A stretch of 63,945 nucleotides of DNA, filler included, from Stramenopiles sp. TOSAG23-2 (Eukaryota), in assembly GCA_900128395.1 (NCBI GenBank). It is 4 parts of 4 records of this genome, joined end to end, with 100 filler letters (N's around TTAATTAATTAA, not from the genome) between each part and the next. Parts side by side here need not be neighbours in the genome. Positions count along the whole stretch, not along the records: positions 1 to 16,885 come from LT649663.1; 3 more parts are not named here. The stretch is one strand, 5' to 3'. The notes under the pieces were generated by a model. It was given only the letters and a program-made list of their open reading frames with translations. It searched no databases and was not told the origin of the DNA. Made by a program: the position numbers and the translations under genes. Positions 501-60,321 of the stretch are shown in pieces; position 1 is the stretch's first letter, and every line of letters begins with the position of its first letter.

Positions 501-883
501 ATCGATATTTTTTGACGATCAAAAAAAAGAGGAGGAAGAACTTAGATGATAAAATGATGGTAATAAAGTCCAATAATAATTAGCATGGAGATAGTATTGA
601 TTTTGCCTTGGATGGACTATATATTTAATCTAATAGACATATATATCAACGAACAAGACAACACAACAACAAGAACAACATCAACAATATAGTTAGTAGT
701 ATTATATTATTATCAGAGGAGAGAAACGATAGTTTGTGTCTGTCAGATAATAGTTATATATATATAGAGACGAACATAGCATATATATCGTGTGTTGTAA
801 TCAAGTTTTTTGTTTGTGTGTAATTGTGTATATTTAATTAATTAGATATATAATTATATAGTAGGTAGAAAGAAGCAAGTTTT

Positions 884-3800
884 ATGATGAAGTGTTTTAG
901 TAATATTTTATTCATTGCATTCCTTGCACTTGTTGCAACGTCCGTCAATGGATTTGATGGTTTTAAATTAGATGATATGGGAAATCCTGTACAATTGAAC
1001 AATGAAGCACCTAAAGCGAAGCCAGCAGTATCTGCTTCTTCGTTGCAAGGTCAAGGCATGGAACGCTTTCGCGAAACAAATGCTGCACCTGTTCATCCAG
1101 AAATAGCAAAATTAATTAACGAAAAAACAGAAATTGGAATCAAACTTGCACAGTTTGAACCAATGAAAGAGGCCAAACCAAAGAAAGGCATCTCTGCAGA
1201 GGAGCTAGAGCAATTGAACTCGTTCCGCGAGAAAGTCGGTGAGTTGCAACGCTTGCCAGAAGGTGCAAAATTGTTAGGTAAAATGGCGAAAAGGTTATCC
1301 CAGAATCCACATGAAAATGTTGACTCGTTTTTAAACCTTTTATTTAGTTTACGTAAAAGCTTAGCAAGTGCAAAAAAGGATTCCAAACAAATATGGAAAA
1401 AAGTTAAAGGTACTTGTGAAGAATCAGAGCAAGAATCGGATAAGAAAATCAACGAGTTGAAAGGTCGTAAAGAAAAAGCAACTCGTGATTTGCAAAGCAT
1501 TCGTACACGTTTAGCAGATGCAAATAGTAAATTAGCACAAGCACGTTCCAAAGCAACTCCTGCTAAAGGAGGACCAGCAAAAGCAATTGCTATGTTAGAA
1601 ATTTTAGAACATAACGTTGCAAATCACATCCCAAACCGCGGCGTTCCAATGATCAAACCACAATCGATCGATGCGTTGGCAAATGCCATCTCTGGAACTG
1701 CACCTGGTGTATTCAACGTAGCATCGAAGACTATCAGTTCACTCATTGAAATTACTGGTAGTGGTGACGACGATGAAGAAATTTATTGCCCTGAAAACTT
1801 TTGTCAACGTAGTAAAAAACGTGATGCAAACTTCCATGGACCACGCTCTGCATTCGTTGAATGCTTCAAGAAAGAGACCCAAGATATTCGTTTGCCAACC
1901 GTATGGACAGCAGCAAAAGGTGCAAAGAAACGTGTTGCATTGTTAAATAGTGGCATGCATAGACAAGTATGTACTGTTGAAGGCAAAGCAGGTAAATCAC
2001 CTAAACAAAAAGTATATGGCTTGTTAAAACGTTTACGCAATGCTTTATCTGGTTCCTCCCCAGTTGCAAGTGCAGATGTTGTTGTAAAGCAATTGGAAGA
2101 GCAACAAAAAGGCGCGAAGGAAGAAAGTAAAAAAGCGGCAGTTGCTGGAAAAGCAGATGATGCACATGCGGAATTAATTCGTTTAGAAGCAGTTGTCGAT
2201 GGTTTATTAAGTGATGAAGCAGCAACGGAAGCAGCAGAACAAAATTACCACGTATTGCTTGGACAAGAACGTAAATTTAAACTTGATTTGTTACGTGCAT
2301 GTGAGGAGAAAGGTAAGCGCCAATCAGATGAGCAAGGCGCTCGCAAAGCACAAGTGAATGCAGTCGATCTAGCAGTTGCATTGGTAAAACGCAATATGAT
2401 CTTGTTGAAACACTTTTTAAAAGGTGGAAACCCAATGACAAGTGCAGAACAAGCACGTTTAAATGATGAAGCTGAATTAATGCTTGATCCTGACATGGCA
2501 GCCGCTAAAGCATTAGCTGAAGCAAAGAAAAAACAACGTGATGCTTCCATCACTAAAGGCATTAAATCAATTGGTGCATTAGGTGTTGATCCATCATTAG
2601 TTAAATTGCAATTGTTATCAGTGAAAAGAGGTTGCGTACCAGGAAAAGAATTATGGTGCGGCACCAAACGTCAATGTATCGATACTTCCGAGGAATGCCC
2701 AAGCGCACCAACTATCATGAAGGATGAACAAGGTAACCAAGTTGTATCGCAAGGTCAACAGGCTGCATTTGTATTTGAAGATCCATTAGATAAAGAAAAA
2801 GAAGATGCAGAATTAGATGTGATTCGCGAGAAAGCATCAATGATCAAACAAAAAGTTGTAAAAAGAAAGAAGCAAGAAGAATTACGTAAAAAATACGAAG
2901 AGAAAATCAAACGTATTACTAAACGTAAGGAAGAATTGAAAAAAGGCGCAGAAGCCGATATGAAGAAAATGAAACGTATCAGTGCTAAAGCGAAAATTGC
3001 GGAGGCGAAAGCAAATAAATTGGCAATGGATGCAAAAAATATGAAATTGGATATCATGAGTTTGAAAGACGATTTGGAACATTATGAAAAAGAATGTTCG
3101 AAATACGAACGTCGTATGGACGAGATTGAAAACCAAACGTCTGCAATGGCAATCGAAGAGAAAGATGCAGTGAATCGTGCTAAAAAAAGTGCAATGGGAA
3201 ATGCAGAAGACTTAATACAAGAGGAAGATGACATCGTTACCTTGAGAAAAAAATCTAATGCAGCTACTGCTGCGGCAAGAGAAGCTGCAGCAAATGTAAC
3301 AAAAGCAACACAAGATGTAAAAGATGCTGAAGCAAGATATGGCGACAATGCAAGAACAGTAGCAGCCGCATCGAAAGTGTCTTTATTGCAAATTAATGAA
3401 CGCGCACATTTAAGAAGCCGCAGTAAACAACTGGCTGGCTACGGTGGTTATGGCGGTTATGGCGGCGGCGCAGCTGTTGGCGGCGGCGAAGCTGTACAAG
3501 CAAAAGCTGTTGCAAGTGCCGAGAAGACAAAGTCGTATTTACTTGAAGCTCGTTTGCGCGAAACTGAGGAAATGAAACGTTTAAAAATCGCAAGAGAAGA
3601 AGCAGTAAAAGCATCTAAGAAAGTATTGAATGCTATGAAAATGGCTTCAACGATGAAATCCAAAGAAGTTGCTGCTAAAAGTGCTGCAGAAAATGCAGAA
3701 AAAGGAGGCGAAAAAACGTTGAAGAAATTGGAAAGTGAGTTGAAAATCAAAACATCCCAATTCAAATCATGCAAACGTGATAAAAATGCTGCCACCGTAA

Positions 3801-6800
3801 AAATTGCTGACATGGAGTTGAAACAAGCAACACTTGATAGAGAAGCAGCCGAAGCACGTGTTGAAGCCGATAGTTACAAAACTGCTATGAACAAGATGAA
3901 AGTTGCTGAACAAGCTGATGAAATGGAAGCAGCAATTATGGCTGAACCATTGCCAGAGCAAAGCCCAATTATTTCCGTAGCATGTGGCCTATACCTTTCC
4001 GCCAACGAATGTATCTTGGATGTAAGTTGCGGTTGGATCCCTGGCGTTGGTTGCAAATCTGGATCGAAATCTGGCCCATATTTCTGGGATGAACCATTGC
4101 CAGGATGGCAATACAGGAAATTGGACAATGCTAAATGTGAATCTTACTCCGATTGTCGTCAATGCGTTGATGCTGGATGTGGTTGGTGTGGTGCTCGTTT
4201 ATCATGTACTGAAGGAGGTTTGTACGGACCAAGTAATTTGGAAAGTTGCCCACCAGAATACATGCCACAATGGGCACATAAATTAGGACGGGGCCGCAAT
4301 GCATGTCCTGTAAGACAAGTTGTACAGACTGAAAGTGCCATGGCACAACAATTTGCATTACGCGTAGCATTAGCTACCAGAAAAGACATGGCCAAGAAAG
4401 AAAACGAGATTGAAGTGAACGAGGAGCAATTGCAAAAAATGAGAACTGCAAATGCAAATAAAGAGGCAATTAAAACCATGGCACAAACTATCCGAAGCGA
4501 TCGCCGTTCATATGAAATGTTGAAAGCGCAATTAAAAGGCAACGTCGATGAATTAAGACATGCTGAGAAAGGCAAAGCACGCACGTACCAAGCTGGATAT
4601 GCTGAAGGTTTGAAACTGGCAGAACGGAAACATGCACAACAAGAGGGATATTTACAAGGGTTGAAAGAAGGTATTGAGAAAGCAAAAACAATGCGTGGCC
4701 CACAAGGTCCACCAGGATCAGCTGGCCCACAAGGTCCAGAAGGCCGTGGTGTCGATGCATCTGTTGTTGCTCAGACTATCGAACAAAAAATCAAAGCATT
4801 GCATGGTAATGAAATCGACAAAGCTAAACGATTAGCAGAGGAAGCAGTGAAAGCTGCAAAGAATCAAGGCAAACAGCTTGAAAAGATCTCTGGACAAGAA
4901 TTGGCAGCAACTGGTGTAGACGCCGCAACTGGCGCAGCGGAAACTGGTGGAGCTACTGGACTAGAAGCACAACGCGAAGATGCTGCTGCAAAATTAGATG
5001 CCGCTAAATTAGATGCAAAAGCAGCTGTGACAGTGGCCAAAGCAGAAGGCGCAACCGGAGCTGGTGCACCTGGTGCTGAAAATGTTGATTCTATCGATGG
5101 TGGCGATGCTAATAAACAAGTTGAGAAAAAATTGCAAGACTCCAAAGTACAAAAGGCAGTTCAAGCCGCATCTGGTGCAGCTGGTGCAGTAACAAACGGT
5201 AAAAATGCAGGGTCAGCACCAACTGAGAAAGGTATAACCATTGCTTCTGATAATGACGAGGCGGAAGATAGTGATATGGAAAACACAGCAAAAGCTGAGA
5301 AAGATGGTATCAAAACCGGTTTAAGCCCAACAGAAAAAGCTGCAATGGAGGCTTCAAGAGCATCCATGCAAGCCAAGTTAAAGGAATCCGAAGATAAATG
5401 GACTGTCCAAGTTAATAAATTCAAAATCGCGTTAGATGAAGAGAAGTCAACTTGCGGCGCAGCAAAAGCAGCAGCATTAGCAGCACAAGAATTGGAGAAG
5501 AAGAAGAAAGACCTTCAAGGCAAGATCTTAAATATGGAAAAATCAGGTGCAAAATCAAGAGAGAACCAAGCAAAAATGACGGAAGAATTCGTTGAACAAA
5601 CGAAGAAAGTTAATTTAGCAAAGGAGAAATTGGAAGATGCTAAATTGGTCTTATCAAAAGCACCACAACAAACGGATGATCCTCAATACAAAGCAGCAAA
5701 AGCAAAAGTCGATGCTGCCGACACTGAATTCAAAAGTTTAACTGTGACGAAAGATGCTTCAGCAGATGGTAAAAAAGCTGCTGTCCAAGAGGCTAAGAAA
5801 GCTGTCATTGAAATCGACACAGTCAAAAAGGAGCTTGATCGTGTTATCTCCGCATTTACTGAGAAATCAGAAGAAGCTGAATTGAAACAATCGAAGACAT
5901 GCCCAGCTGCTCGCAAGAGGCGCACAATCGAGGAGGCTGAAGCTGGTAAATTAAAAGCAAGTTATGATAAAGTAAAAGCAGCATTAGTTAAACATCAAGC
6001 TATGTTGGATTCTAAAGCAACTGCAGGTGTTAGAAATATGAGTTTTGCATTGTCAGTAAAAGGCGGTCCATACATCAGTGCAGGAAAGAAAGGCTACAAT
6101 GTAATCAAGAATAAAGCTAGCAAAACGGTGTCAGTAGAGGCATGGGTACGCTTACGTGCTTTTGCCCCTGAAGGCATTTTTATGACTGGTTTAGTTACAA
6201 GTACAGGTGGTAATAAAGGTGTAAATGGCCATGGTTGGGCTTTAGGTGCTGATCAAAATGGTTTTGCATTTGCATTTAGACGTGAAGATAAAGCTACCCC
6301 AACGACGGAAATGGATATTATCCGCTCATCCGCCCCAGGAGCGGCTGATGATAATGCTGCTGGCGTGAAAGTTGAATTGAATAAATTTTATCATGTAACT
6401 GCAACATTCACTGATAAACAAGCTAAATTATATATTAATGGAAAACTTGCAAATTTCAAAAGTTATTCCCCATCAACAATTAGTTACGACGTTAATGGTA
6501 AACCTGCTAGTGGAGGTGAATTCACCGTTGGTGCTATGAGAAAAAGTAGCCCATCCAATGCAGTAGTTGATGATATCACCGTTTGGTCTAGAGAATTGAG
6601 CACAGATGAAATCAAAAGCCATTCTTGCGACGCTGCAGCATCGAAGAAAGCAATGACTGCTTCAAAAGATGCAGCACTTGTATTATATTACAATTTTGGA
6701 CCTGGCGACGTTCCAGGATTAAATGTATTAGATAAATCTAAAAATAGTTTAGATGGAAAAATATATGCTCCAGAAAACTCTAGCGTTAAATGGCTTGCAG

Positions 6801-6883
6801 AAGATGTTAAACAATATAAATGTAGCGATTTGATTCGATTAGGTAGAAGTCAAACGACAAGTAACCTTCGTAGAAGAAGGTAA
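884..6883 (+). CDS. Giant secreted coiled-coil protein: trichocyst-matrix-like helical region, small Cys domains, 2 PSI repeats, short collagen-like stretch, C-terminal LamG/pentraxin-like domain
   Basis: Uninterrupted 1999-aa ORF with a signal peptide (ILFIAFLALVATSVNG). PSI motif CESYSDCRQCVDAGCGWC; GPQGPPGSAGPQGPEG; LamG motifs SVEAWVRL...FYHVTATF...KLYINGKL...VDDITVWSRELSTDEI. Confidence 0.9.
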   Translation: MMKCFSNILFIAFLALVATSVNGFDGFKLDDMGNPVQLNNEAPKAKPAVSASSLQGQGMERFRETNAAPVHPEIAKLINEKTEIGIKLAQFEPMKEAKPKKGISAEELEQLNSFREKVGELQRLPEGAKLLGKMAKRLSQNPHENVDSFLNLLFSLRKSLASAKKDSKQIWKKVKGTCEESEQESDKKINELKGRKEKATRDLQSIRTRLADANSKLAQARSKATPAKGGPAKAIAMLEILEHNVANHIPNRGVPMIKPQSIDALANAISGTAPGVFNVASKTISSLIEITGSGDDDEEIYCPENFCQRSKKRDANFHGPRSAFVECFKKETQDIRLPTVWTAAKGAKKRVALLNSGMHRQVCTVEGKAGKSPKQKVYGLLKRLRNALSGSSPVASADVVVKQLEEQQKGAKEESKKAAVAGKADDAHAELIRLEAVVDGLLSDEAATEAAEQNYHVLLGQERKFKLDLLRACEEKGKRQSDEQGARKAQVNAVDLAVALVKRNMILLKHFLKGGNPMTSAEQARLNDEAELMLDPDMAAAKALAEAKKKQRDASITKGIKSIGALGVDPSLVKLQLLSVKRGCVPGKELWCGTKRQCIDTSEECPSAPTIMKDEQGNQVVSQGQQAAFVFEDPLDKEKEDAELDVIREKASMIKQKVVKRKKQEELRKKYEEKIKRITKRKEELKKGAEADMKKMKRISAKAKIAEAKANKLAMDAKNMKLDIMSLKDDLEHYEKECSKYERRMDEIENQTSAMAIEEKDAVNRAKKSAMGNAEDLIQEEDDIVTLRKKSNAATAAAREAAANVTKATQDVKDAEARYGDNARTVAAASKVSLLQINERAHLRSRSKQLAGYGGYGGYGGGAAVGGGEAVQAKAVASAEKTKSYLLEARLRETEEMKRLKIAREEAVKASKKVLNAMKMASTMKSKEVAAKSAAENAEKGGEKTLKKLESELKIKTSQFKSCKRDKNAATVKIADMELKQATLDREAAEARVEADSYKTAMNKMKVAEQADEMEAAIMAEPLPEQSPIISVACGLYLSANECILDVSCGWIPGVGCKSGSKSGPYFWDEPLPGWQYRKLDNAKCESYSDCRQCVDAGCGWCGARLSCTEGGLYGPSNLESCPPEYMPQWAHKLGRGRNACPVRQVVQTESAMAQQFALRVALATRKDMAKKENEIEVNEEQLQKMRTANANKEAIKTMAQTIRSDRRSYEMLKAQLKGNVDELRHAEKGKARTYQAGYAEGLKLAERKHAQQEGYLQGLKEGIEKAKTMRGPQGPPGSAGPQGPEGRGVDASVVAQTIEQKIKALHGNEIDKAKRLAEEAVKAAKNQGKQLEKISGQELAATGVDAATGAAETGGATGLEAQREDAAAKLDAAKLDAKAAVTVAKAEGATGAGAPGAENVDSIDGGDANKQVEKKLQDSKVQKAVQAASGAAGAVTNGKNAGSAPTEKGITIASDNDEAEDSDMENTAKAEKDGIKTGLSPTEKAAMEASRASMQAKLKESEDKWTVQVNKFKIALDEEKSTCGAAKAAALAAQELEKKKKDLQGKILNMEKSGAKSRENQAKMTEEFVEQTKKVNLAKEKLEDAKLVLSKAPQQTDDPQYKAAKAKVDAADTEFKSLTVTKDASADGKKAAVQEAKKAVIEIDTVKKELDRVISAFTEKSEEAELKQSKTCPAARKRRTIEEAEAGKLKASYDKVKAALVKHQAMLDSKATAGVRNMSFALSVKGGPYISAGKKGYNVIKNKASKTVSVEAWVRLRAFAPEGIFMTGLVTSTGGNKGVNGHGWALGADQNGFAFAFRREDKATPTTEMDIIRSSAPGAADDNAAGVKVELNKFYHVTATFTDKQAKLYINGKLANFKSYSPSTISYDVNGKPASGGEFTVGAMRKSSPSNAVVDDITVWSRELSTDEIKSHSCDAAASKKAMTASKDAALVLYYNFGPGDVPGLNVLDKSKNSLDGKIYAPENSSVKWLAEDVKQYKCSDLIRLGRSQTTSNLRRRR

Positions 6884-7040
6884 ATAGTTTATAAGAGCGA
6901 CAGAAAAGCAAAAAGTAGTAAAAAAATAATATATTTTTTATAAAAATATATACTTGATTTTAATAATTTTAAACACACACACCCATTTATATTTTTTAAT
7001 ATAAAATTATGACACTATAAATTTAGAATATCTTTTTAGT

Positions 7041-8251
7041 TTAGGTGTCTTGCAGATGCGGTCGAATGACCATGTTGCCCTTATTGTCCGTAATTACATC
7101 TAAATTATTCTCAACAAGGACTGATTTATGTTGACCAAGATTGTTACCAGCTCCATTCGTCACAAGATTAAATATTAATTGGAACCCTACAATTTTATTT
7201 CGTATAATAAAACACCCAACAAAATTCACTATGTATATATATATGTACGTATTTTTGTTAGTAACTTACTTAGAATATTATCTGTAGCATTTGTGCACAT
7301 TCTTACTTACAAATAGCAACTAATGTTATGAAAATATTCACATTAGAATTGTAACGACGAGTATTTGCACGATTACTTAATTGTTGTCCAAAACTAATAC
7401 TTGATAAACCAACAAATATGAATAAACATGGATAAAATAAATATGAAAATATTAAATTTGCAGATAATGCTATACAATGCCCAGACAAAGCATACCCAGT
7501 TGTATATGCACACATAGACCATGAACTTGTTTCTCCTAATGCATAAAATCCTATTTTAAGTAAACATGTAAACCCTAGCCAACATGTAAACGATAGAAAA
7601 ATTGCAGTACTTAAAATCATTTGTTCAGCATAGTGCCTTGGCCAATCGCCTTGTAATTCTACACTCATCGTTAAAATTGCAGCCATTGTAAGTGTCAATA
7701 CGAATGGGCCATAAAGATCTGGTTTTGACGTATATCGCTTATGGATATTTTGGTTATTGCCGGTATTGTTGTTTTGGCGCGATGTTGGTATATTTGGAAA
7801 CAAACTATAGATCAATTTACGTATAAAATCACTTGTATCAACTGTAATATTTAGATAAACGTTAAATTGTTAGAAACATTTTGTGTTTTTTAATATATTT
7901 ACATGTTCATGTATAGTCAGACTTACCGTCAAACAATGGTCTTAACGTATCTATGATCCCGTAAAAATTTCCTGCTGTGACCATGTCTTGTACATCTTTT
8001 GCACGTCTACGAATATATCTTGCTAATAGCTCTTCACGCTCTTCATCCTGTTGTGTTCTATTATTCTCCATATGATTATCACTATTATTCGTTCCACCAC
8101 CTTCCACATCTACATTCATGCTGGTCATGGTTGGCGAGCCATCTTTATCATTTTCACTGGTTACTAAATTTGACGATGGCGTAGGATTACGCTTTCTAGC
8201 TTGATTTGGTTGCATCATCTTGTACACTAATAATAATTTCGTTCTTACCAT
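7041..8251 (-). CDS. YIPF3: Yip1-domain Golgi membrane protein, YIPF3-like; 3 exons (8251-7927, 7841-7311, 7228-7041)
   Basis: Introns 7842-7926 and 7229-7310 (GTAAGT...CTAAC...AG) join three ORFs in frame. The product reads IDTLRPLFDVDTSDFIRKLIYSLFP...DLYGPFVLTLT...TAIFLSFTCWLG...GYALSGHCIAL. The start could be 8218 instead. Confidence 0.8.
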
Positions 8252-17824: not shown

Positions 17825-20724
17825 ATGAGTGCAACAGCTAGTACTGATATTGTTAAAGTAGATGATGGTCAAACAACTGAAATTGCAATAGATGCACCTT
17901 CGTCCCCTGATCCAAATATGAAATTGGCATTACCACCATCTGGCTTTACAGAAGATGAAGCAAAAGTTTTAGAAATTAATGGTCCACACGTCATAACATT
18001 TGGTTGGGGTGACCATGGTCGAACTGGTATCACAAAAGAAACATATGAAATGACGCAGCTATCACCACGGCCAATATTTTTAACTATTCAGGAACAAATT
18101 AAAATTGCAGAAGAAGAAGCAAAATTGAAAAGGAAAGGAAAAAAGAAGGCAAAACATTCTGTTGACAAGAAAGCGCCATGCTGGAGTAGTATACCGTTGC
18201 CTTTAGTATCTTTATTGGGAAATAAAACAAAGGGTAAAGTATGTGAAGTTGCTTGTGGCGATAGACATACAATTGTTTTAACAAATAAAGGTCAATTATG
18301 GGCTTTAGGGGATAGCGCTTTAGGTGCTTTAGGTACAGGTGGGCATGATGATTGGTTTGATCCAGATGCAGAAGTCCAAATGCGTCCAAAAATGGCACGT
18401 AGATACATTTTTAAACCACCAAAATCAACCCGAACTATAAAACATACCAATGCAAAACCGTTAGAAGTTGATATAAAAAGTGCTGGATGTAAATTGGCTG
18501 TACATATATATTGTGGTGGATTTTCATCTTATGCGTTAAGTGGAGATGGGAAGGTATATTCTTGGGGAGAAAATACACATGGACAATTAGGTTTAATGAA
18601 TGATGAGGAAGAAAAGGCTTGGCTTGAAAAAGAAGAAGAAGAAAAAAAAAATGCTAGAAAAAAAAGTTGGAAGCAACCGAAGAAAAAGAAAAACGATGGG
18701 AGTGATGATGAGGAAGAAGATGGTAAAAAATCAAATAGCAAACAAGAAACGGAAAAAGAGGAGGAGAAAATTTATGATGAATTAGGAAATGAAGTAGAAG
18801 TTAAGCCATTAAAAATATTGACAACGCAACGAGTACCTCGATTAATACGGAAATTAAACAAACAAACCATTAAACAATTAGCAGTTGGGCATAGACATGT
18901 ATTAGCATTAACCAAAGGTGGTGGTGTTGTCTATTCTTGGGGTTTCAATAATTGTGGACAATTAGGGACGATGGATACTGAACATCAAAGATTACCAAAA
19001 CGCGTTACTTCATTGCGAGGTGCTGTTGTATTAGAAGTAGCTTGTGGGCGACATTTTTCAATCGCTGTCGCTACTACGGATCATTATAATTTTTTAGGCA
19101 ATCGTTTAGCCCGTAAGGTGAAAAAAGAAAAGATAAAATTACGCTTAGTCCTGACATGGGGTGAAAATAAAAATGGGCAATGTGCAGCTGGGCATTATAA
19201 ATCACCAGTTTTAAAGCCTCATACTGTCGTACCATGCGCTAGTTGGGGTGAAAAGGATGGTGGCGCTAAAAAACCTGTAAATATATTAGGCGCCGCTGCT
19301 GGATGTTTTCATAGTTTATTCCGCGATGAGCAAGGGCGTCTCATGAGTGCCGGTAACAATCGTTTTGGACAATTAGGAATGGGGGATTTATATGACCGAT
19401 GTCATCCCTTATTCATCGATACGATAGGTGCAGTTGCAAAAATGGCATGTGGATCTAGATGGTGCTTAGCTGCACAAGGGAATGGTATGTTACATACAAA
19501 GCAAAATACATTTTGTGTATCCATTATATAATTATATACATTTATCTTTGTTAAATGTTACTAACAATTACATCTTAATTACCATACTATAAAAAATATA
19601 TGCATATATTCTGCATCTTATACATTTATATAGGAACAATATGGGCATGGGGTAGTAATGTGTATGGGGAAATTGGTACAGGTAATAAATCATTATATTT
19701 ACAACCTGTAATATTGAAACATTTAAAAGAAGTTCGGCCTGTTCATTTAAGTGCAGGTAATAGGCATAGTGCTATAGTGGTAACAGACAATCCCGATGAT
19801 AGCAAACCTGCGTTTAGAGCTGCATATACGCATGAAACTATTACTATTAGTGAAGATAGGCGAACAATTACAAGGATCGGTGAGGAAGATAATTTTTTAG
19901 TTGGTAGCGTTGCGTTACCTGTTGTTTCTGATGGTAAATATCGATGGGATGTTAGTCTTGATGCCATGAATACGGACATGAACCCGGTAGTAATTGGTCT
20001 ATGTTTTGAATCTGTTGATTTATCTTGTGATCCAACATATATTTTAAATTCATGGAATTACATGTCTACTGGCGAGAAATATAATGTTGAGGAAGGTGCA
20101 GAGGATTACGGTGAGGCATATTTTGAAGGAGATATTATTGGTGTAGAAGTAGATCGTGACATTGGATATATTCGATTTTACCGTAACAATGTACAGCAAG
20201 GTATTGCATATTATGTAAATTTTGAGAGCGAGGATCGTGATGTGTATTTGTATGTTGGTTTGCCTGGGCAAAACGATAAAGCGACTGTCATGGTATCAGA
20301 TGATAACGAGGTAGATGAAGATGAGGACGAGGATGAAAATTTGATATGCTTAAATGAAGAAGATGATGAATCTAAGAGACATGCTCCGTTGCAAGTGTAT
20401 TTTTTTTGTGCAAGTTGTAAGGTGCATATATGTCGATCATGTGCGTATCAGTGTCATAATGGACATGCTGTTGGATTAAAAATACAACACGGTTTTCGGT
20501 TATGTCATTGTACAAAATCGAAGCCAGCCGATCACCGTTGTATTTCTTTACCAGAAGTTGATTCGGATGAAGAAGGTGGTGGTGGTGGCGGCAGACGTGT
20601 TCGTAGGCATAAAAAACCTGGAGAAAAGAAAGTGAAGAAATACAGCAGTTTAGTGCCACCTTCAAAACAAACGTTTTTAGAGTTATTAAATTCGCATCCT
20701 CCAGGGTATGAGGTGAAAAAGTGA
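17825..20724 (+). CDS. RCC1-repeat + SPRY + C-terminal UBR/B-box-like zinc finger protein; 2 exons (17825-19484, 19634-20724)
   Basis: RCC1 repeats (VACGDRHT, VYSWGENTHGQLG). Intron 19485-19633 (GTATGT...TACTAAC...TAG) gives AAQGNGTIWAWGSNVYGEIG in frame. SPRY motif GDIIGVEVDRDIGYIRFYRN; zinc finger CASC...ICRSCAYQCHNGH...CHC. Confidence 0.88.
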
Positions 20725-57247: not shown

Positions 57248-59140
57248 TTATAATAACACATCAAAATCGCTAATGAAAAATTCAGTATCATGTGTGCTAG
57301 TGCCTAATCCAGTTTCTGGCCCTATATTTAACGTGATAATTTCAATAGGTTCTTTAGCCATACATGGAAACCAAATTTGTTGCCACAATTTTCCGACATG
57401 TAACTCATGCATTTTTGCATCCCCAATAAAACCATCACTTGAATTTATTGGAAAACCATAAGCATTCCAAATTGGATGGGGGGATATTTTATAAATAGAT
57501 TGACCATTTGAATTTGACATTGGATCACAGCACGGCACATTGATACATTCTGAACAGCTAGTGCATGGGCAACAATATTGTTTGTATGCATTATATGGAA
57601 AATGCTGTTTATTTTCACGAGAGACTTTTGTTCCATTTCGTAAGATATGAAACAACGGGCATCCGTTGATTGAATCCTTGGAACAACTTCCACCACCAAT
57701 ACCATAATCTAACAAAACTTGTTGGTGCACATTTCTATTTGTATTACTATATGGCCTGCAATTTTTCCCAGTGATTTGGTCCCAGCAAGCCTCCATATTT
57801 AATAAATACCAAGATCCAATGCCACCACTCCCAACATTGTTTTTTGTAATATTAAGGAAAAAACGAACAATAAAATCTTGACCAACATGTACTTTTTCAG
57901 CAATCATTCCTCTTCCATCATATGCTTGATTTCCTTTCACGCCTTGGGATATATCTACACCGAAGTATGTGCAAATCCATGGGTACAATGTCGATACGCG
58001 TTGATATACGCGAACAATAGCTTTATTTAATGTAGGAGACCATTCCCAACTCCATATTCCAAGCGACTGATTTTTTGGAAAGTCTTCTTCCTTCACTTTT
58101 AAATTGGCATCTAATTCAAACGTCCAGTTGAAACTACCAAATAAATTGGATGAATTCGGATCTGTAAATTGAGTCATGACCTTTGCTTGATTCATTGGCA
58201 AATTATTAAATTTTAACATACTTGGTTTTGTCGTAGCAAAAATACTCCCTTTTGGTGGTTTGTTGTCGCTGTGCTCGTTTTTTGGACATCTTTTGGTCGA
58301 TGCATTAACTGCTGGTGGATATGGATAGGTTTTATTGAAATTTATGTAACAATATGGTAAGCAATCGTCTACCGTGCCTAAGGTTGATTGTGCATTGCCA
58401 TTTTGCGACATCAGTGTCCAAAAATAGGAAAATTCAAGAGCTGTCTCTTCACGATTCCTACGGATTTTTGTATATTTTTTTTTACACTTCTCTGCAAGAT
58501 AATGTTCCTTACTCACTGCTAGCCATTCATCATCAAGAAGATTTTTATTTTCAACAGCACCAGCATATTTCGTATTATCTTTCTCTGCTATAGTTTGTTT
58601 TCCATTGACAATACAATTGGCATAACGAGGGGATGGAAGCGTTTGCTTAGGGTGGTACAAACGAGTAGCAGAGCCATATAGCAGTGAAAGATACTTTGGG
58701 CCATTTTTATTCTTTTGTGGTACTGTATTATCTTTTAAATCACACATTACTAAAGTATTGTTTGTTGAGGACGCTTGTCGACGTGTATATGCTAGACACC
58801 AAGGGCGTTTTAAGCATTGGCTACAACACGTTTCATCTTTCGTTTCAGGTACTTTTTCAACAGAACCGAATCCAATGATTGTATTAGGCACAACAGGAGA
58901 ACACGTGTCTGTAGTAGCTGGCACTACAGACATATTACTATAACCAGCCTTTGAGCACAAGTTGTAAAAAAATAATTGCATTCGTGGACCATTCCCTTTT
59001 TTCTTCCACTCCATGCCAGGGTCTCCTATAATTGAATGGTACTGACGTTTTGTCAAGATGTTTGCACTAATTACAACCGTCACGAGACACAATAAAATGC
59101 ATATTGACTGAAACGTGCCATACACCATGGTTATTTTCAT
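57248..59140 (-). CDS. Secreted Cys-rich protein of a plant-known uncharacterised family (DUF7705-like), with an inserted PAN/apple domain
   Basis: Signal peptide; GDPGM, SPRYANC, FWTLMSQNGN, YPWI..Y, YDGRGM, YLLNMEACW, CPLFH, FPYNAY, CDPMSN, PHPIWNAYGFP, GFIGD. PAN-like CCSQCLKRPWCLAYT...CDLK. Confidence 0.75.
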   Translation of the reverse strand: MKITMVYGTFQSICILLCLVTVVISANILTKRQYHSIIGDPGMEWKKKGNGPRMQLFFYNLCSKAGYSNMSVVPATTDTCSPVVPNTIIGFGSVEKVPETKDETCCSQCLKRPWCLAYTRRQASSTNNTLVMCDLKDNTVPQKNKNGPKYLSLLYGSATRLYHPKQTLPSPRYANCIVNGKQTIAEKDNTKYAGAVENKNLLDDEWLAVSKEHYLAEKCKKKYTKIRRNREETALEFSYFWTLMSQNGNAQSTLGTVDDCLPYCYINFNKTYPYPPAVNASTKRCPKNEHSDNKPPKGSIFATTKPSMLKFNNLPMNQAKVMTQFTDPNSSNLFGSFNWTFELDANLKVKEEDFPKNQSLGIWSWEWSPTLNKAIVRVYQRVSTLYPWICTYFGVDISQGVKGNQAYDGRGMIAEKVHVGQDFIVRFFLNITKNNVGSGGIGSWYLLNMEACWDQITGKNCRPYSNTNRNVHQQVLLDYGIGGGSCSKDSINGCPLFHILRNGTKVSRENKQHFPYNAYKQYCCPCTSCSECINVPCCDPMSNSNGQSIYKISPHPIWNAYGFPINSSDGFIGDAKMHELHVGKLWQQIWFPCMAKEPIEIITLNIGPETGLGTSTHDTEFFISDFDVLL

Positions 59141-60321
59141 TTGAATATATATATATGTGATAGACAAAACGTTGCTGTGGCTGAGACTATTGAATTGTGA
59201 ATGAAGCCAATTCAACTTGTAGTTGTGGCCAAGGTGTATTGTTAGTGTATACTACTTTTATTTTATTATTTATTCTATTCTTCATTAATATTGTTTTTAC
59301 CCCCGGGTCGTTATTATATTAAACGTGGCGTGGTGTATTTTTCATATATATTATTTAAAAAAAAAAAAAAACAGAAAAGTATAAAAAACTAATTTTGCTT
59401 CTTCCCTGCACAATTTGATTGTATTGGATTTATATATTGTATTAGATTTATATTGGTGGTTGTTTTGCACTTGCATGCACTGTAATAAATATTAAATATT
59501 ATACTACTATTATACTACTATAGACGACTCTACACTCTTTCTGGCTTTCCTTTCCAGCAAGCTTAACCTGGCTGGCAAAGCCTTTTGGTTTGGGCAAGAT
59601 AAAGCCACAGCAAAAGGGCTCATATTTTGAATATCAGGCTGGCGGAAAAGAGGAAGAGAAGAAAAAAAAAGAAAGGGAGAAAAAAGAAGGAAAAGAAGGG
59701 AAAGAAAGAAGAGAATTATAAACTTGTTAGAAATGACTTTTAACAAACCAATATTCGGATATTTTAAATTATGATATCAAAGTAGATTAAATCAGATATT
59801 AGATATAGGATATATATTACTCTACGACTACTTGTTTCAGGCTTTGGTACAAACGCATATAGGTCAGCCTGATCGTATTGTAAGAAAATGTACTTAAATC
59901 GTCGAAATTAACCCTAATGATTATCCTATTTATGCAAAAATGGAAAATTCGGACATTTTAATTATTGGCATTTTAATTATAATATAACAAAAAAAAAAAA
60001 CTGGGGCACTACAGCACTGCCAGACTGGCAGACTGGACTGGGGGGGTGGCAAAAAAAAAAAATAATAATAATAATACAAAACTAATAATCTAATAATACA
60101 AAATACAACTACACTACAAGTTACAAGTCTTAGTTTTATAAAGTGTGCACAAAACAACAACAAACAACACTGATCGATAATAATAATACTAATAAATAAA
60201 TCCACTTTAATACATCCCTTCCATCTTCTTCTACAAAAAAATAACAACACACACACATCCAATTACCATCCATCATTGATAAAAATAATTACTACAAATA
60301 TTAACAATTATAATTTTAAAC

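Follow-up and report, generated by a model that had tools for sequence, protein, structure and literature searches.

A candidate secreted fibre protein with helical rods, PSI, collagen-like and laminin-G modules in a marine stramenopile

The 63,945-nucleotide (nt) stretch of DNA analysed here, referred to as the window, comes from Stramenopiles sp. TOSAG23-2 (GenBank assembly GCA_900128395.1) and carries a large gene at positions 884..6883 on the plus strand. An initial annotation had read its product as a secreted modular protein with helical rods, PSI domains, a short collagen-like run and a C-terminal laminin-G (LamG) domain, a description with which the present analysis agrees. The coding sequence is one unspliced open reading frame (ORF) of 1,999 codons plus stop, and its start codon is the first ATG downstream of a stop; all features of this gene given below lie on the same strand. 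The large ORFs of the window are all open under standard stop codons, therefore the source is not a ciliate that reassigns TAA or TAG, as expected from the earlier view of a standard-code and apparently non-ciliate protist.

RNA-library contigs from four ocean studies (X2, X5, X6 and X18) start at positions 766-771 and end at 6887-6917 with zero splice joints. The whole gene lies in one RNA contig each in X2 (769-6915) and X5 (771-6887); X6 and X18 cover it with overlapping contigs, the final X6 piece stopping at 6833. Because the contigs of four studies span the gene without a joint, the transcript is taken to be an unspliced mRNA of ~6.15 kb (766..6917) with a 5' untranslated region of ~115 nt and a 3' untranslated region of ~30 nt. 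Such contigs report presence and continuity, neither level nor strand, and the strand of the transcript was taken from the ORF. At least half of the sampled sequence words of the gene were found in 20 of the 24 sequencing runs listed, which belong to 9 studies and include 13 RNA runs, and at least 90% of the words were found in 13 RNA-recorded runs, poly-A libraries included. The gene is real and transcribed, not a chance frame.

The predicted mature protein has a mass of 214 kDa, an isoelectric point (pI) of 9.18 and 28 cysteines after the signal peptide. Its modules follow each other in the order signal peptide, N-terminal region, rods, PSI, Gly-X-Y run, acidic spacer, RK[RKV]R site, Laminin_G_3 and basic tail. 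The signal peptide (aa 1-23; 884..952) was judged by Kyte-Doolittle hydropathy in 19-residue windows, not by a dedicated predictor, and it holds the sole window with a mean above 1.6; across the whole protein no second hydrophobic segment of this kind was found beyond the N-terminus. This lone N-terminal window is in line with the earlier statement that the modules come after a signal peptide. Since the sole hydrophobic window is N-terminal and the C-terminus is hydrophilic, ending in RRRR, the sequence fits a soluble secreted protein with a cleaved signal peptide and without a membrane or lipid anchor. A Pfam scan of the whole protein at E-values (E) up to 1 returned Laminin_G_3 and PSI only, with no EMI, gC1q or EGF family, from a local library that does not include T1-F (PF27870). 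No characterised protein of the same architecture was found by PDB sequence searches or by a narrow literature search for the module combination, and the initial annotation had likewise known of none. Two papers on flagellates (PMC10268365, PMC8237690) make no mention of laminin, lectin, adhesion, collagen or extrusome.

Among 7,995 scored candidates from public metagenome and genome collections, the sole hits were four clusters of full-length orthologues, which align over 99-100% of the protein at 98, 81, 55 and 52% identity and have 145, 11, 32 and 13 members, respectively. Pattern scanning of metagenome contigs gave 226 matches, nine of which encode a relative, at five loci (L001-L005). A HMMER profile of aa 24-634, run on 1.84 billion representative proteins with an E limit of 0.001, gave 81 hits: 20 from the protein's own family, made up of orthologue fragments and a distant clade, and 61 on a four-cysteine (4-Cys) stretch only, among which P0106 is a repeat protein and probably spurious and P0070 probably comes from an orthologue as a fragment. 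The distant-clade proteins (P0062, P0064, P0068, P0073 and P0076) show 26-29% identity and keep the same N-terminal layout. Two longer members, P0140 (1,435 aa) and P0141 (1,450 aa), run from the signal peptide and N-terminal region through a rod, PSI, a second rod and a glycine-motif helix to the Gly-X-Y run. Both end at the same aligned point with unrelated last residues, which suggests an intron or a truncated gene call. Compared with the 52-55% orthologues, the most constrained parts of the protein are the PSI region (80-81% identity), the helix that precedes the collagen-like run (74-81%), a CxxWC knot in the N-terminal region (67-77%) and the 4-Cys module (61-70%); a hinge with the motifs SLLQ and GYGG (31-34%) and the acidic spacer (27-38%) are the least constrained. 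Profiles of four modules run against the 596 six-frame pieces of the 64-kb window gave self hits only, and no paralogue was found among the database search hits.

Four helical rods make up much of the protein. Rod 1 (aa 635-832; 2786..3379) is very rich in Lys, Glu and Arg, has no proline and three glycines, and shows a 3.5-residue periodicity (z 4.8). The hinge that follows it (aa 833-864; 3380..3475) consists of SLLQ (3380-3391), a basic stretch and GYGGYGGYGGG. Rod 2 (aa 865-1024; 3476..3955) is also proline-free and carries C963, which is invariant with the distant clade included, and its heptad periodicity is not significant (z 1.3). Rod 3 (aa 1148-1229; 4325..4570) lies within a stretch without proline (aa 1146-1270), again with no significant periodicity, and rod 4 (aa 1481-1672; 5324..5899), which contains C1524, reaches z 2.8-3.0 on aa 1481-1714. 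These z scores come from simple in-house scripts and not from a calibrated coiled-coil predictor. Compared with shuffled sequences, helical periodicity was significant for aa 140-230 (z 5.2), 640-832 (z 4.8), 1481-1714 (z 2.8) and ~1289-1340 (z 3.9), and not for aa 400-520, 865-1020 and ~1146-1270. The coiled coils of the initial annotation thus stand for part of the helical length only, because the latter three segments remain at the level of shuffles.

Between rods 2 and 3 lies the cysteine-rich PSI region (aa 1025-1147; 3956..4324). In the scan of the whole protein PSI (PF01437) stayed under the cut-off (E 0.0079), whereas the region scanned alone reached 28.1 bits against a cut-off of 23.1 (E 2.6e-6), in two stretches and in 4 of 4 orthologues. 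A profile of this region matched Plexin-C1 (6vxk_B, E 1.2e-4) among solved structures, with CGWC conserved. Two PSI domains had been proposed at ~3980-4310; one of them is a full domain (~aa 1084-1122), and the other is better described as a shorter PSI-like half (aa 1034-1057).

Rod 3 leads into the glycine-motif helix (aa 1230-1271; 4571..4696; TYxxGYxEGL...GYLxGLxEG...KA), which is kept in the distant clade and may serve as a helix-packing or registration motif. A sub-threshold Yae1_N-like match was also seen here (E 0.0011, 19 bits against 27.5). Directly behind it stands the collagen-like Gly-X-Y run (G1272 to G1287; 4697..4747), in which six glycines are spaced by three residues and which opens with the GPQGPPG motif (4697-4717). 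A run of six was reached in 0 of 5,000 shuffles, and the six glycines are invariant in 6 orthologues as well as in a second, 5-member alignment with two distant relatives (~28% identity). Because the run is short, it scores only 15.5 bits with Pfam Collagen (PF01391) against a cut-off of 27.2. A complex prediction with three copies of aa 1141-1321 scored 0.22 against a mark of 0.32, with controls not run, and gives no verdict either way. The run is followed by a short helix (aa 1289-1338; 4748..4897) with a 3.6-residue periodicity (z 3.9) and by a variable spacer rich in Ala, Gly and Thr (aa 1339-1480; 4898..5323), which is acidic (pI 4.47 for aa 1341-1480). An in-frame 9-nt insertion after nt 5171 was present in one RNA contig (X5) and adds three residues to this Ala/Gly-rich spacer; since this is where the protein is least conserved, the insertion is probably a natural length variant.

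At the end of rod 4 an invariant C1673-P1674 pair adjoins the basic site RKRR (aa 1677-1680; 5912..5923), within a conserved C-P-x-A-R-K-x-R. R-x-[KR]-R occurs only twice in the protein, RKRR being one of the two, and the other copies of the gene read RKKR, RKVR or RKRR at this place. RK[RKV]R is a candidate proprotein-convertase cut ~40 residues upstream of the LamG domain, judged from its conserved motif. The LamG domain had been placed at ~6040-6800 and was recovered as a Laminin_G_3 (PF13385) match, a concanavalin-A-like beta-sandwich (Pfam aa 1745-1911; 6032..6628), with 61.2 bits against a cut-off of 27.6 (E 1.6e-16); the isolated C-terminal end gave 65 bits (E 1.1e-17). Its nearest solved sequences are an S-layer protein domain, sialidase lectin domains and pentraxin, all of them weak matches (E 0.0056-0.8). 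The last 84 residues (6629..6880) form a tail conserved in the orthologue alignment (LVLYYNFGPG..VPGLNV.D..K..LDGKI, C1980) with a basic LRR(RR) end, and the isolated tail matched no Pfam family. The idea that the tail supplies displaced first strands of the LamG sandwich was dropped, since HMMER gave only a negative-score fragment and the tail alone had no Pfam match.

PSI and Laminin_G_3 are extracellular domains of binding type, and extracellular proteins are the usual carriers of PSI, collagen-like and LamG modules. We favour, with a probability of about 0.5, the reading that this soluble, secreted, disulfide-rich and basic glycoprotein is a multivalent adhesive or recognition fibre built on a collectin/EMILIN design. 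In such a fibre the ~214-kDa basic glycoprotein would form a long segmented rod, whose chains are probably held in trimeric register through the invariant Gly-X-Y run and the flanking helices, and the conserved isolated cysteines of the rods may add inter-chain disulfide bonds. The LamG domains would be clustered as lectin-type heads at one end, and the conserved N-terminal region at the opposite end would serve self-association or anchoring. Reach and flexibility would be provided by the rods together with the hinges, namely GYGG, the PSI knot and the acidic spacer, and the net positive charge would favour anionic surfaces such as bacterial envelopes and polysaccharide. A cut at RK[RKV]R might release or activate the LamG head. 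In a bacterivorous marine flagellate the most likely role would be the binding of prey or particles, or a sticky surface coat. Secretion, trimers, disulfide cross-linking, the binding of a ligand and a cut at RK[RKV]R are all inferred, and the fibre reading rests on the secretory design, the invariant Gly-X-Y run, the conserved PSI region and pre-collagen helix, PSI and Laminin_G_3 matches above cut-off, proline-free rods, a significant 3.5-residue periodicity in three helical segments, the pI of 9.18, the module order in the distant clade and the presence in RNA.

Several observations weigh against a lectin-headed surface fibre. Five to six Gly-X-Y triplets are few for a self-stable triple helix, and LamG_3 domains do not always bind sugar. 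Heptad periodicity is not significant in three helical segments, and some stretches of the rods may exist as single charged helices instead of coiled coils. The gene models of P0140 and P0141 stop at the equivalent of ~aa 1510, upstream of any LamG, and some family members may therefore lack the head. In addition, the likeness of the N-terminal region to trichocyst proteins in the ESM Atlas, described below, points to granule storage and not to a surface fibre.

The proposed fibre has parallels among animal proteins. EMILINs and multimerins place a coiled coil and a collagenous stalk between their terminal domains. EMILINs are described in PMC3342094 as homotrimers that build large multimers, with a Cys-rich N-terminal domain and a C-terminal globular head. 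The window protein has its parts in the same order as the EMILIN/multimerin group, from a signal peptide and a Cys-rich N-terminal domain through a long helical stalk and a short collagenous run to a beta-sandwich head at the C-terminus, but it lacks EMI and gC1q, has a Laminin_G_3 head and an inserted PSI region, and opens with an unrelated N-terminal region; the parallel is one of design analogy and not of homology. Collectins such as mannose-binding lectin and surfactant protein D start with a Cys-containing N-terminus, continue with a collagen helix and a helical neck, end in lectin heads and bind microbes multivalently. They differ in their long collagen stalks, their C-type lectin heads and their roughly 10-fold shorter chains, whereas the window protein has only 5-6 triplets and is dominated by helices. 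Laminin alpha chains, according to PMC10888245, also carry a long coiled-coil rod followed by C-terminal laminin-G-like domains. In contrast, laminins are alpha-beta-gamma heterotrimers with LN, LE and five LG domains, none of which was found here, and LamG_3 is another Pfam family.

A long secreted rod that lacks its own membrane anchor and is found steadily in ocean RNA libraries would also suit a part of a surface appendage or coat, that is, a fibre on flagellar hairs (mastigonemes) or in the glycocalyx that docks through its N-terminal region. However, no solved chain resembled the protein at E up to 1 except a sialidase lectin domain, in a PDB copy whose mastigoneme entry is unconfirmed, and the Pfam scan contained no EGF-type mastigoneme modules. 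Tubular hairs are broadly distributed among stramenopiles, and a protein family restricted to two clades is much narrower than that range. We regard the appendage explanation as unlikely.

The part of the favoured fibre that is assigned to self-association or anchoring, the conserved N-terminal region (aa 24-634; 953..2785), is the signature of the family and was defined in two alignments. It has a pI of 9.20. The mature protein opens with FDGFKLDDMG, invariant in 6 of 6 aligned orthologues, and then follow block A (aa 140-230, with C178), SLIE, the 4-Cys module, block B (aa 400-520, with C473), the CxxWC...C knot and a VVxQG..A.VF.D strand motif. The helical strings quoted in the initial annotation were all located at their places in the ORF translation: VDSFLNLLFSLRKSL at aa 146-160 (nt 1319-1363) and WKKVKG...INEL at aa 171-192 in block A, KVYGLLKRLRNAL at aa 376-388, and RACEEK...VALV at aa 471-501 in block B; the same is true of the SLIE, SLLQ and GPQGPPG motifs. 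Both helical blocks carry one invariant cysteine each, C178 and C473. The AlphaFold model of the N-terminal region as a whole is poor, with a predicted local distance difference test (pLDDT) score of 43.6. An internal duplication of the two helical halves was considered and found unconvincing: hhalign gave a probability of 5.8% (P 0.0065) over 77 columns with 12% identity, and it pairs the two V..LL..L helices of the halves while leaving their cysteine motifs unpaired.

SLIE (aa 286-289; 1739..1750) lies directly upstream of the 4-Cys module. L287, E289 and I290 are invariant in the orthologues, whereas S286 varies, and an S-L-[IV]-E-[IV]-like motif is also present in the distant relatives P0140, P0141 and P0064. 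The 4-Cys alpha/beta module itself (aa 293-368; 1760..1987; C302, C307, C327 and C363) is seen in the HMMER hits and in a structure model, and has the consensus ALPPGY[DE][DE]ELYCPxxxCLRxK....G..GPRS.F.EC....(P)..WG......K..LL..G.H...C. over ~75 residues. It usually stands straight after the signal peptide of small proteins, with dozens of protist examples (P0078-P0136), and a Pfam scan of 26 carriers returned no family for this stretch. The model was computed from 49 sequences, namely the window protein, P0063 and 47 of the 61 hits (14 longer ones were omitted), and reached a pLDDT of 82.4 with a core above 90. No solved fold like it was found by Foldseek, whose best match had E 2.6, with 0 matches at E of 0.001 or below. 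On these grounds the 4-Cys module is, as judged from sequence, a widespread family for which no Pfam family was found and which stands at the extracytoplasmic start of many protist proteins.

The same module also heads proteins with a GH99 domain (P0095, E 7e-97), a JTB membrane-protein domain (P0098) or ubiquitin-like domains (P0082, P0132), and GH99 endo-mannosidases act in the Golgi. Together with the shared opening of the GH99 and JTB proteins, the basic charge of the window protein, which would bind bacteria within a vacuole as well as outside the cell, could point to a protein that works in the lumen of endomembrane or digestive compartments, such as a food-vacuole agglutinin or a Golgi cargo scaffold. 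Yet neither a retention signal nor a membrane segment was seen, and the PSI, collagen-like and LamG modules are of a kind that is typically extracellular, which leaves a luminal function very unlikely.

The initial annotation had gone further and proposed an extrusome precursor with coiled coils like those of the ciliate trichocyst matrix proteins (TMP) and Grl proteins. On this reading the first 600 residues would be truly related to, or functionally equivalent to, these trichocyst and mucocyst lattice proteins (T1-F). As extrusome cargo, the protein would be packed in docked secretory vesicles and cut at its linkers during maturation, and its discharge would give an expanding sticky thread, tipped with lectin, for catching prey or for defence. 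The ESM Atlas search by language-model features with aa 24-640 agrees with this to a degree. Ciliate T1-F trichocyst-matrix clusters were the top three of 30 hits (0.86, 0.85 and 0.85), although a third of shuffled proteins score 0.8 or more in this comparison and values below 0.9 are a lead only. The three clusters share 185, 184 and 172 of 256 features with the query, and in calibration at least 170 shared features were reached by 9 of 10 true family members against 1-2 of 10 chance hits or distant relatives. All of the ten best hits with a family assignment agree with the top T1-F hit in family or clan. As a control, the helical aa 640-1030 gave no usable hit, indicating that the likeness is not what just any charged helix of the protein would give. 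The secreted helical blocks with one invariant cysteine each, the S-L-[IV]-E conserved upstream of the 4-Cys module even in distant relatives and the conserved RK[RKV]R would also suit a processed granule protein.

Other searches did not extend this likeness. The HMMER profile matched nothing among the 1.84 billion representatives beyond the protein's own family and the 4-Cys carriers, leaving the helical blocks without an outside relative. Trichocyst proteins are said to share a fold despite different primary structures (Gautier et al. 1996), therefore the missing HMMER relatives are weak evidence against kinship. With E values up to 10 allowed, the N-terminal alignment gave 8 own-family fragments only in a word-indexed search. 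Precomputed Pfam assignments list PF13385 alone for the orthologues and nothing for N-terminal fragments, in a Pfam version for which the presence of T1-F is not established, and the two helical halves compare with a probability of only 5.8% in hhalign. TMP and Grl proteins are small precursors that are cut to pieces of 15-20 kDa. Trichocyst proteins reportedly form a large multigene family (Madeddu et al. 1995), whereas the window protein is a single 214-kDa chain with no paralogue in the 64-kb window or among the database hits. Like them it is a secreted helical protein, and T1-F clusters are the nearest ESM Atlas neighbours of aa 24-640; it differs in showing no HMMER-level similarity and in carrying extra PSI, collagen-like and LamG modules. 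Its mature form is basic (pI 9.18), and Grl1p is described in PMC2133959 as acidic and calcium-binding. S-[LIVFM]-x-[EQ] motifs, proposed as maturation sites, occur three times in the protein against 3.7 +/- 1.9 in shuffles, which is chance level; SLLQ falls in a stretch that ranks among the least conserved (31-34%) and is not retained in the distant clade, and S-L-[IV]-E before the 4-Cys module could equally be a beta-strand.

Trichocyst kinship of the N-terminal region is thus a lead only, drawn from sequence comparison, and we consider an extrusome cargo unlikely. If the protein were nevertheless stored and fired, its closest parallel would be nematogalectin of cnidarian nematocysts, which belongs to a fired organelle and, according to PMC4195985, combines a signal peptide and a conserved N-terminal region with GXY repeats, followed by a lectin domain that binds sugar and by a basic tail. 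Nematogalectin differs in its galactose-binding lectin domain, its much shorter chain and the absence of long helical rods and PSI, and because it comes from an animal lineage the likeness would be convergent. A bolder form of the proposal holds that true homology links the first 600 residues to the lattice proteins of ciliate trichocysts and mucocysts, which would make this the first TMP/Grl-type extrusome matrix protein outside alveolates, fused to PSI, collagen-like and lectin modules. We think this improbable. Were it true, lattice-type firing organelles would be older than the split between alveolates and stramenopiles, and tiny uncultured ocean bacterivores would fire a lectin-tipped sticky thread at their prey. 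More generally, a correct trichocyst-like reading of the N-terminal region would provide a link between ciliate and stramenopile extrusomes.

Grazing on ocean bacteria is mainly the work of small heterotrophic flagellates, whose prey-capture molecules are almost unknown, since most of these organisms are uncultured. With the adhesive or recognition fibre as the favoured reading, the gene is a concrete candidate for a prey-capture or surface-adhesion molecule and is present in several independent ocean RNA studies.

The neighbours of the gene in the window are of housekeeping type and include SLC12, sedolisin, RCC1/SPRY, XPG, PPR, glycosyltransferase, CAF1, Rpn5, LRR and Yip1 proteins. The Yip1-domain ORF (7303-7815, minus strand) lies downstream of the candidate fibre gene, and a small ORF (7907-8251, minus strand) is found close upstream of it; the two may be exons of one vesicle-traffic gene. 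Two adjacent RCC1-repeat ORFs at 17825-19531 and 19600-20724 (plus strand), the second with SPRY, are 68 nt apart and are probably one gene with a short intron (17825-20724). At 57248-59215 (minus strand), a Cys-rich protein with an N-terminal hydrophobic segment is encoded, which matches DUF7705 with E 1.7e-58.

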